NCBI GenBank assembly: GCA_043799675.1
Contig: JAZDNN010000040.1
Location: 1-52,751, forward strand
DNA: 52,751 nt
Direction: 5' to 3'
Source: Candidatus Aenigmatarchaeota archaeon
GTDB lineage: Archaea > Aenigmatarchaeota > Aenigmatarchaeia > Aenigmatarchaeales > JACQIB01
Made by a program: the position numbers. This document shows positions 15,001-18,000 of this stretch, one piece after another (the first letter of the stretch is position 1; every line of letters starts with the position of its first letter).

Positions 15001-18000
15001 CGCCCGGGCGGGGATTCTCAATTTCCCTGGAAAGTTTCTCTTTCCAAGGTTCTTTCTCTTTTCTAAAGAGAAAGGCCTTTTGAACCCCGGTTACAAGCTT
15101 GACAAGCTCGCATACTGGGCCACTATACTACCCGGACAAACCAGCTTTAAGCCCGAGATTATTTAAACGTTGATTTTACATGAGCAGCAAAGCTGCCAAA
15201 ACATGTTTTCGCCGCCCGAGGCGGCAGGTTTGCTACCCTTTGGGCCCGTGGCCCGATAAACCCAAAGCCACCGCAAGCGAGGCGGTCACCATTCCCATGA
15301 TGACGGTCATGTCCACGCTTCCCGTGACGGCGCTCCAAGCGGTCCCGATTGACACCGCAAGGAGGGCTACAGCGAACGCCGTTTCCAAGCTCTCATTTTC
15401 GTCCGTTTTGCGCTTCCGTGGCATGCATTTGATTGCTTAAGCCAGAATAAAAAGAGAGCCGTTGGCGCTGTAATAAATCCTTTCCTGCCGATAGCCCGTT
15501 CATGAAGTTCGATTACTTCGCGACCAACCGCGTCGAGGTGCCGCCGGCAAAGCGGAAGGACTACATGCGCCTCTGTTTCTTCCACGTCACATCGCAGTAT
15601 GACCTGAGGCATCACCTGAACTCGCTTCCGAAGCACATCCAGGCGAGGATGCTCGTTGACAGGAACATGGATTTCCGCGTCGGAATGAGGAAGGAGGACG
15701 CATGGGCTACCGACCCCAGGGGCTTCTCGACCATGATGTACGGCGAGGTAGGTTTCGCCTCGAATATTATGTTCGACGGCAGGAATTTCAGGTACAGGCT
15801 GTACTGTTCGGACGACCTGAAAAAGCGCAATCTTAACATACTGTTCGAGCCCATGCGGCTGCATGAAAAGACCGGCCCGGATGCGCACGGCCTTAATGTC
15901 ACCAGGGAGGACGAGAAACTGGAGCCAATCGAGGCGCCGTTCACCTGGGACGACATAAGGAATCATTACAAGCATGGTCTCGAGTTCGAGATGAAGGAAG
16001 CGAGACAAAGGTTCGGGTGGCACGGTCCCAATCTTGACGGACTTGACATCGATGAAAATTATGAAAAGTTCGAAGAGGCAAGATGCCTGGAGGACGAAAA
16101 GGAACGCGCAAAGAAGGAACTTCATATCAACCGCATCGTACGCAGGAACCTTGAAAAAAGCAATCAGTGGCGTGAAAGCCTGAAGGAAAAGTGCAATCTG
16201 TTCAAGGAAGTTCGTGCTGACATCGCAAAGAAGCTAGGAAGACCGGCAATGCTGAACGTGGCCTACGGGACCATGCCTTTCCTGCAGAACGACTGTCTCG
16301 ACGATTCGATTGCCGCCTGCTGGCCGGTCATGTATGCGTTGCCCTACACGGACGGCATGAATGACAGGACGCTCGCCCTTCTTGACGCGGAGATATACGT
16401 AAGGCCCGAAGGCGGATGCACGCACATCGTCTCGTTCTATCCATACACGTCGCCGACCGAGGAAATAGCCGAGCTCAATGCGCAGTTGCTGAAGGAAGAC
16501 GGACCCATGCGCGCGATGTTCGCGCATGAAATGCTTGAGTCATTCATGTGCGAGAAATTCCGGTCGATTGGCTATGACTTCCTGGGATACATGGTCGACA
16601 GGGGGTATCGGGAATGTATCCAAGCTGAAAAGGTTTCGCAGGGGAACGAAAGGCACCGCCGGCTCAACAGTATGCTGGACAGGCTCGGCTATTCGGACTG
16701 CACGGAAGCGCTGCTGAAACGGTACGAGGAAGCGGCCGATGCGGTAATCAAAAGGATTGACGCGGAGAAACCTATGAAACGCGGTATTCTGGAGTCGGTG
16801 ATGGAGAGGTATGGGATGTTCCGCTACAAGCCTGACATGATAATCAGTGCGGCGGAACACCTGATGGGCTGGAAGTACGCCCACATGCTTGCGATGAAGA
16901 CCGGCTGTGAAGAATGGAGGCAAAGCATCCAGTCGGGCAAACTGCCGAAGTCCGGAATGGGGAACATAAAGCTCAGACAAATGGATGCCTTTATGTTGAG
17001 GGACGATGCTTCTGAAAAGTGCGAAATCCAGGCAACGGATGATTCGGAAGAATGAAATAATTGATGGTCGCCAGCTTCTTGGGGTTCCCGCCTTTTCGGC
17101 AGTACAGCCCAAATCGATGACGCGATTCACTACCGTGATTCCGCCTCTTTTTGGTCTCAAAAAGATGTTTCGGAACGGGAACGGGTCTTACCACGTCTCT
17201 TTGGCCGGCAACCAAGTCTGATTGCGCCTTCGAAGGTATTTAAAGTTTTTGTCGACAGGTTTAGCGGTAAGAGTCCAGAATTTTCCTGATTAAGATTGCT
17301 TTTCTGCTTTCTGTAAAACCTACCAAACTTCCAAATTTTGTCATGTTGCTTTTGCCTAATACTAGCAGCGCCCAACAATCCATTGTTGCCCTGCCGGTGC
17401 CTGCCGCATGGTCCAGATATATCCGCGATTCTACCCCGGCCTTTTCTAGCATCTTCTGCACGGTCAGTAGCAGTTTCTTATCGGAATTGCTAATTTTGAT
17501 TTTACGATCCCATTGTGGATACTCTTTTCCATTTTTCTTTTTACACCCGCGTCGCATTATTGGAGTTCCTTCGCCGTCTGCAAATCCTCGAATGTATTTC
17601 ATCTGTTGACTCTGCGGCCAGTTCAACATTTCCGAATACATACTGTACGATTAGTTGCTCCGAATAATAAGCTTTGTCCGAAGGTCCAGCCGACTTTTTA
17701 TTCGGGCTATCCGAACTAGGTATGAGGTGAAAGATATGATGTCGACTTTACCGGTTGATCTGAAGAAAGTGAAAAAGGAGGATATCGACAAGTCCATCTG
17801 CAGGGTGGGGATGATAGCCGAGCTGGATGCTGTCAGCTTCTACGAGCAGATGGCGGCAATGACCGACAACCACGGCATAAGGAAGATGCTGCTCGACATC
17901 GCCAAGGAGGAGAAGACACACATGGGCGAGTTCGAGGCGTTGCTGCTCAGATTGGACAGGGAGCAGGTAGACGAGATCGCAGCCGGCAAGAAGGAAGTCG

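Follow-up and report, generated by a model that had tools for sequence, protein, structure and literature searches.

The 5S rRNA gene encoded in a contig of 52,751 nucleotides (the window, hereafter) from a Candidatus Aenigmatarchaeota archaeon contains 31 additional nucleotides in the region of loop C, which raises the question of whether this sequence is an intron or a part of the mature RNA. An earlier note had proposed the former, that is, an intron in a 5S rRNA gene with the bulge-helix-bulge (BHB) structure of archaeal splicing substrates. The tests described here, all of them at the level of sequence (register of the motif, restored loop, comparison with relatives, and presence of genes for both EndA and RtcB), support that proposal, and we assign a probability of roughly 0.82 to the reading that the 31 nt represent an archaeal BHB intron which would be removed by the splicing endonuclease EndA and the ligase RtcB.

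The host genome (labelled G000; 748,753 bases in 45 contigs, 83.41% complete) has a single 5S match in an Rfam search of the assembly, at 17066-17212 on the minus strand, whereas the 16S and 23S genes were not found in the assembly at this level of completeness. The match to RF00001 spans the whole model (positions 1-120) with 44.7 bits, above the gathering score of 38, so that the gene belongs to this family; it leaves 33 unaligned letters around loop C, and the length of 147 nt given before stands. Intron-less relatives of the order score 60-74 bits against the same family, setting aside G007 with 105.5 bits. Only one other RNA gene of the window reaches the gathering threshold of Rfam, a tRNA gene. 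The TATA-like box in front of the 5S gene and a T-rich stretch 3' of it, both read from the sequence, are taken here to be a putative archaeal promoter and terminator, on the basis of the known consensus and its spacing. The elements of the locus are collected in Table 1.

Table 1. Position of the 5S rRNA gene, the parts of its proposed intron and the neighboring elements in the window.
Feature	Coordinates	Strand	Basis
5S rRNA gene, 147 nt	17066..17212	-	Rfam RF00001, 44.7 bits vs gathering score 38
Exon 1, 44 nt, gene positions 1-44, 3' end ...CCCGUUCCGAA	17169..17212	-	BHB parse, sequence
Proposed BHB intron, 31 nt, gene positions 45-75	17138..17168	-	BHB parse, shuffles, nhmmer
Exon 2, 72 nt, gene positions 76-147, 5' start CACGGUAGUGAAUC	17066..17137	-	Sequence, BHB parse, nhmmer
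BHB 5' strand in exon 1: outer CCGU 17178-17175, central UCCG 17174-17171	17171..17178	-	Parse
5' bulge AAA, proposed cut 17169/17168	17168..17170	-	Parse
Inner hairpin h', 9 pairs with one A.G mismatch, loop GAGACC (6 nt)	17144..17167	-	Parse and fold
BHB 3' strand: central CGGA 17143-17140, bulge AUC 17139-17137, outer ACGG 17136-17133	17133..17143	-	Parse
Proposed 3' cut, within bulge AUC	between 17138 and 17137		Parse
TATA-like box TTTAAATA, 25-32 nt ahead of the 5' end of the 5S gene	17237..17244	-	Read from sequence
LAGLIDADG reading frame	17261-17641	-	LAGLIDADG_3 match, E 2.6e-10
tRNA gene with a long unaligned insert	19589-19709	-	Rfam

Along the RNA strand, the region reads ...GACCCGUU CCCGU UCCG AAA C-A-UCUUUUU GAGACC AAAAAGA-G-G CGGA AUC ACGG UAG..., and both the sequence itself and an independent parse confirm the insertion at 17138-17168. 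A BHB motif is described, in the accessible part of PMC5829648, as a 4-bp helix between two 3-nt bulges. Our own parser, which tolerates one mismatch in the inner helix, finds such a structure here, with four of four pairs in the central helix UCCG/CGGA and the 3-nt bulges AAA and AUC, and agrees with the anatomy proposed earlier down to the 9-bp hairpin with its mismatch; the outer helix CCGU/ACGG is newly named. The strict hBHBh' form is found as well, with 4 bp in the outer helix and 9 pairs with one mismatch in the inner one, with the qualification that the minimum-energy fold prefers an alternative 3' pairing. In the unconstrained ensemble the central-helix pairs have a probability above 0.98, and this helix is also part of the minimum-energy fold calculated for the precursor (-57.0 kcal/mol), which extends it by U38-A74 and G37.U75. 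This fold pairs ACGG with the upstream CCCG, which leaves a 3' bulge of 1 nt instead of 3. Two features count against the intron reading: the strict BHB conformer lies 4.8 kcal/mol above the minimum-energy fold, and the 5' bulge is closed by a lone C-G pair followed by the A.G mismatch.

The minimum-energy fold also keeps the rest of the 5S scaffold intact with the insert in place, which favors a different reading, namely that the 31 nt would be kept in the mature 5S rRNA as a hairpin emerging from helix III/loop C, comparable to the expansion segments of Halococcus and Thermoanaerobacterium. Expanded 5S rRNAs are indeed known, and loop C (34-37) and the helix III bulge (52-53) are the least obstructed sites of the bacterial 5S rRNA, according to the available sections of PMC7812874. 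We consider this retention unlikely, and one of the reasons lies in the motif itself: a retained hairpin needs neither a 3' tetranucleotide complementary to the upstream exon nor 2-3 unpaired bases next to it, whereas 13 of the 15 inserts compared below have both, in the exact register.

Another reason comes from the product that excision would leave. Archaeal EndA cuts after the second base of a bulge, and an in-silico cut at this base in both bulges takes out 31 nt (17168..17138) and leaves 116 nt. The resulting joint, ...CCCGUUCCGAA/CACGG..., that is, ...UUCCGAA+CACGG..., reproduces the loop of intron-less relatives such as G027, G028 and G037 and restores the conserved CCGAAC. Against an nhmmer profile made from 28 intron-less 5S genes of the order (the outlier G007, 105.5 bits, being omitted), the G000 gene scores 93.8 bits as it stands and 111.0 bits when spliced in silico, the latter in an end-to-end alignment and inside the range of six intron-less relatives (98.6-113.3 bits). 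The 116-nt form is therefore collinear with intron-less 5S genes, as had been claimed. Spliced in the same way, the insert-bearing genes of the order align end to end with 100.8-111.0 bits. Under retention, the insert would have to split the conserved CCGAAC (...UUCCGAA/CACGG...) shared by the intron-less relatives, while none of the surveyed 5S expansion segments interrupts conserved motifs, as stated by the authors in the accessible text of PMC7812874, whose survey, in the same portion, has archaeal expansions limited to Halobacteriales.

The distribution of such inserts among relatives reproduces the counts given before for the order: a 5S match was obtained with Rfam in 36 of 42 genomes, 29 of them with genes of 115-121 nt (31 matches) and seven with genes of 147-183 nt. 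An even sample of the class provided 5S matches in 131 of 151 genomes, with 14 genes of 134-183 nt. Order and class sample together provide 15 inserts in the loop C/helix III region of 14 genomes, corresponding to 12 of the 14 long genes of the class sample and, from the order, G034 and G036. These inserts are 20-68 nt long, mostly unrelated in sequence, and located at three sites within 7 nt. Site A has the junction CCC(R)U/U(Y)CGAAC, where the slash marks the insertion point, and is occupied in G029, G025, G024, G036, G102, G116, G101, G106, and G121; site B (CCAUUC/CGAAC) is occupied in G026; and site C (CGAA/CACGG) in G000, G034, G036, G162, and G100. The seven insertions of the order had been assigned to one and the same loop, which holds for the loop C region as a whole, but not for a single point within it.

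When parsed in the loop-restoring register, 13 of the 15 inserts form the full central helix, and the other two, those of G034 (UCCG/AGGA) and G100 (ACCG/CGGG), form three of its four pairs. The earlier note had counted four of the six foreign inserts of the order with 4/4 and two with 3/4; this has to be corrected to five of six genomes with 4/4, with G034 as the only one at 3/4. It had also assumed one insert per long gene, which is right for six of them, whereas G036 has two (46 and 25 nt), the second of which had been overlooked. Both have a central helix of 4/4, and the outer helix of the second goes from 0 pairs before removal of the first insert to 4 pairs after it. Inserts at site A nearly lack the outer helix (2 pairs) and appear, from their sequence, to resemble relaxed HBh' motifs. 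We also considered the inserts of G070 and G114, and rejected them as BHB introns: they are located in helix IV/loop D, give no parse in a sensible register and look like hairpin extensions. The parser, hence, does not pass every insert.

The likelihood of finding these motifs by chance was assessed with 5000 dinucleotide-preserving shuffles of each insert, keeping the exons fixed and scoring as success a central helix of 4/4 plus an inner helix of at least 4 pairs. Across the inserts, a BHB in register appeared in 5-20 of the 5000 shuffles, and one in any register within 8 nt in 76-685. For the insert of G000, the true register was obtained in 10 of 5000, and 334 of 5000 succeeded when shifts of up to 8 nt and length differences of 1 nt were allowed. 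An independent set was gathered from metagenomes by the two exon flanks (18 specified bases) and a gap of 33-63 bases, these being the sole grounds of selection. More than 120 stretches matched, 80 of which were listed, and 71 of these 80 were dropped because nhmmer did not recognize them as 5S. The nine metagenomic 5S genes among the matches listed, from a different 5S lineage, all parse with 4/4 at site C; their inserts are 18-41 nt long, with one bulge being AAA or AAU and the other AAC or AGC, and with inner stems that vary in sequence while keeping their pairing.

Occupancy differs even inside genera, with the insert present in G034 and absent from G033 (g5), and present in G036 and absent from G037 (g24). 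Three sites, unrelated sequences and variation within a genus fit mobile introns better than a retained segment. The comparison also bears on the idea that the gene of G000 is a dead or mis-assembled copy, with a normal 5S gene hidden in the unassembled 17% of the genome. We give this hardly any credence. An assembly of 45 contigs and 83.41% completeness, in which 16S and 23S were not found, would leave room for it, but none of the seven insert-bearing genomes of the order shows a 5S gene besides the interrupted one, genes of the same design are found in independent assemblies, the exons are as conserved as the intron-less genes, and the TATA-like box and T-rich trailer have been retained.

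An intron of this type requires a host able to process it, and G000 has genes for both a splicing endonuclease and an RtcB ligase. Two adjacent genes on contig C10 (locus L037, 1474-2103 and 2040-2552, both on the minus strand) match the endonuclease catalytic domain PF01974 (84.5 and 56.6 bits). The best solved relative of the 190-aa product is 3iey_A (E 7e-30), and that of the 170-aa product is the first half of 5x89_A (E 3e-25), a chain which is named as a fusion of an EndA-like protein and an endonuclease. Because of these two matches, the EndA of G000 is read as a putative two-subunit (alpha-beta)2 enzyme, one of the two EndA types reported to cut non-canonical introns, according to the accessible part of PMC5829648. 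RtcB is encoded on C16, with a match of 524.5 bits in two pieces. Disrupted tRNA genes are abundant in this genome as well: 15 of its 16 tRNA matches are 85-161 nt long, and several parse as strict BHB introns, one of which is placed after position 24. In the tRNA gene of the window, the intron is 47 nt long and placed at 37/38, with a central helix CUGU/GCAG, the anticodon stem as outer helix and no inner helix; ARAGORN reports no tRNA in the window, whereas Rfam finds this intron-bearing one.

What has been observed is a motif in the right register, the restoration of the conserved sequence, a pattern among relatives and a set of enzyme genes; from these, we infer cleavage, ligation and what becomes of the intron. 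Transcription of the 5S gene would be driven by its own TATA-like promoter. The precursor would then fold through pairing of bases 35-42 (exon) with 70-73 (intron) and 77-80 (exon), creating the outer helix CCGU/ACGG, the central helix UCCG/CGGA, the 3-nt bulges AAA and AUC, and the intron hairpin. The two-subunit splicing endonuclease would cut both bulges, and RtcB would join the exons into a 116-nt 5S rRNA and probably circularize the intron as well. After ligation, ACGG would be expected to pair with the upstream CCCGU copy, forming a normal helix III.

The BHB evidence applies equally to a process that stops halfway, in which EndA would excise the insert and leave a fragmented 5S rRNA, its pieces of 44 nt and 72 nt kept in contact by base pairs. 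Helices I and II would indeed provide this contact, but the presence of an RtcB gene makes such an outcome highly improbable, and unligated BHB products are not known from any mature rRNA. Bacterial rRNAs fragmented by the excision of intervening sequences are known (cited in the accessible part of PMC7812874), whereas the cleavage products of archaeal BHB motifs in tRNA and rRNA precursors get ligated, according to the available portion of PMC10515664.

RNA libraries provide a direct, if limited, view of the locus. X1 is the only RNA run found to share words with the target sequence (0.11 of those sampled). The exon-exon joint does not appear in the contigs from runs X1, X2, X3, and X5, which end before the junction or enter insert-like sequence: X3 and X5 gave no contigs matching the locus, and those of X2 cover 17172-17213 and 17065-17108 and then end. 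A 1061-nt contig of X1 matches 17065-17145 except for one difference, and so includes exon 2 and the final 8 nt of the insert; it continues into 22 unlike letters, the last 8 of which look like what is presumably the start of an Illumina adapter; the other 958 nt have no match to the window. Since this contig runs on into unlike sequence, its source would be a relative whose insert differs. An unspliced form from that relative is therefore present in the X1 library, as RNA or as contaminating DNA. Seeing exon 2 joined to insert-like sequence, and no spliced RNA in the contigs, might be taken to favor retention. However, contigs are blind to RNA ends, strand and maturity, and the library may contain DNA, and the X1 contig therefore represents neither evidence of retention nor support for splicing.

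The LAGLIDADG reading frame located upstream could suggest an intron-encoded homing endonuclease, but it is not inside the intron. It lies outside the 5S gene, ending 48 nt upstream of its first base, with the TATA-like box (17244-17237) placed between its stop codon and the gene. Its proximity to the 5S intron is probably incidental, and we rejected a link between the two. The LAGLIDADG domain PF14528 is matched 17 times in G000 and is present in 33 of the 42 genomes of the order. In a scan of 273 reading frames of at least 100 aa around 45 5S loci, a LAGLIDADG gene was found within 1.5 kb of the 5S gene in 3 of 14 loci with a loop C insert (G000, G034, and G162) versus 2 of 29 intron-less ones (G016 and G017), and a jackhmmer search started from the G000 protein found, among the 5S loci, no match besides itself. 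Its nearest relative, in G008 (46% identity), has its closest tRNA genes about 885 nt away, and a tRNA gene directly abuts the relative in 1 of 10 relatives' loci. An Ogg glycosylase gene is located directly upstream of 5S in G029, G033, and G034, while in G000 Ogg and 5S are about 1.6 kb apart, with the LAGLIDADG gene and two other ORFs between them. The Ogg protein of the window has its closest titled relative at 54% identity, under the label Candidatus Aenigmatarchaeota, and a closer match of 67% in an untitled record of an uncultured archaeon. We interpret the LAGLIDADG gene as a selfish, free-standing element inserted upstream of the 5S promoter, not as a part of the intron.

A broader proposal, which we find rather doubtful, is that the 5S inserts form a family of mobile mini-introns moving between sites and stable-RNA genes. 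Movement could take place through a reversed EndA/RtcB reaction followed by copying into DNA or, alternatively, through gene conversion aided by neighboring free-standing LAGLIDADG endonucleases. Three hints point in this direction: the first 13 nt at the 5' end are identical between the G100 intron (site C) and the G101 intron (site A), which come from different families; the 14 unmatched letters of the insert of the X1 relative are identical to a 14-mer that is single-copy in G000, within a tRNA gene; and occupancy varies within genera. A blastn-short search for a second copy of the intron in G000 found none.

BHB introns also occur in archaeal pre-mRNA, as in cbf5 of Crenarchaeota, a case that is alike in being a non-tRNA BHB handled by the tRNA-splicing enzymes and different in its protein-coding host gene. 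The proposed 5S intron may also be compared with the BHB introns of archaeal 16S and 23S genes (e.g. Thermoproteales 16S; accessible part of PMC4496867), which share with it an rRNA gene as host, a presumed cut by the tRNA-splicing endonuclease, the short, ORF-less nature of some of them, a patchy presence among relatives and several sites per gene. Unlike them, the inserts described here reside in 5S, belong to a DPANN lineage and not to Thermoproteales, lack an internal homing endonuclease gene and measure merely 20-68 nt. A further group comprises the non-canonical tRNA introns, either of hBHBh' form or relaxed (HBh'/hBH), which are substrates of (alpha-beta)2 or epsilon2 EndA (available sections of PMC5829648). 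They have the same motif and the same enzymes, in line with a host rich in disrupted tRNA genes and with the HBh'-like inserts of site A; here, however, the substrate is not a tRNA, and it is the conserved loop C of 5S that provides the exon side of the motif. Finally, the expansion segments of Halococcus morrhuae and Thermoanaerobacterium (accessible part of PMC7812874) are likewise helix-forming extra sequences in or near loop C/helix III, but they are retained in the mature RNA, whereas the insert of G000 interrupts conserved sequence and has its BHB in the proper register.

Our searches of the full-text literature, whose coverage leaves subscription journals outside, retrieved no paper on a 5S rRNA gene with an intron and no occurrence of the exact phrase "5S rRNA intron", which makes 5S the one rRNA without a described intron in that literature. 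If the 5S rRNA is indeed spliced, ribosome assembly in these archaea would also depend on the tRNA-splicing enzymes, and the list of BHB substrates in DPANN archaea would be extended. 5S genes may be missed or score low in such genomes because an insert interrupts them, and an oversized 5S gene should not always be regarded as one with an expansion segment. With three occupied sites within 7 nt, these genes would offer a compact system to address the gain and loss of BHB introns.

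Between the glycosylase gene Ogg and the 5S rRNA gene of the source genome, G000, lie about 1.6 kb that hold a LAGLIDADG ORF, a small rubrerythrin-like ORF and a further ORF, all of them listed in the table below, and this spacer is absent in the genomes G029, G033 and G034. The closest relative of the LAGLIDADG ORF, with 46% identity, is found in genome G008, and at one of the ten loci of its relatives (L263) a tRNA gene directly abuts the ORF. Across the order, LAGLIDADG_3 domains are very abundant although the genomes are small: a single genome has as many as 48 matches. Many of the domains lie within open frames of 800-2200 aa, which are likely inteins, and many others are free-standing.

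Features of the window and of other contigs of its source genome (G000)
Feature	Location	Strand	Remarks
LAGLIDADG_3 ORF, free-standing	window 17261-17641	-	126 aa; end 48 nt upstream of the 5S gene
Rubrerythrin-like ORF, small	window 17655-18020	+	PF02915, E 1.6e-09
ORF	window 18267-18818	+	no Pfam match
tRNA gene	window 19589-19709	-	anticodon GUA (our own reading); 47-nt intron at 37/38
RtcB match, two pieces	C16:57796-59134	+	profile positions 1-27 and 25-426
tRNA gene with long intron	C38:10280-10397		contains the X1 14-mer

The tRNA gene of the window was not detected there by ARAGORN. Its intron has a central helix CUGU/GCAG with the bulges AGC and AUA, the outer helix being the anticodon stem, and the inner helix is absent. 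Since a long listed ORF (18815-19690) extends into this tRNA gene, Ogg probably starts inside that ORF, at about 19462. As to RtcB, the ligase proposed to join the 5S exons, the two pieces of the match are separated by about 22 nt.

Other inserts in 5S genes fall outside the BHB pattern. Those of G070 (L041) and G114 (L042), of about 31 nt, are placed in helix IV/loop D and fold as a hairpin of 11-12 bp, and no in-register BHB was found in either of them. Within the class, these two inserts may be genuine 5S expansion segments.

Beyond its match to the window, which ends at 17145, the contig from the RNA-library run X1 carries 14 letters that are not adapter sequence. They are part of a relative's 5S insert, and their reverse complement occurs exactly once in G000, at C38:10341-10354, within a tRNA gene. 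This identity may be due to chance; alternatively, it may reflect intron families common to tRNA and 5S genes. The 5S introns of G100 (L047) and G101 (L045), whose host genomes belong to different families, are located one at site C and the other at site A of the three neighbouring insert sites; their first 13 nt are identical, which suggests a single intron family occupying two sites.
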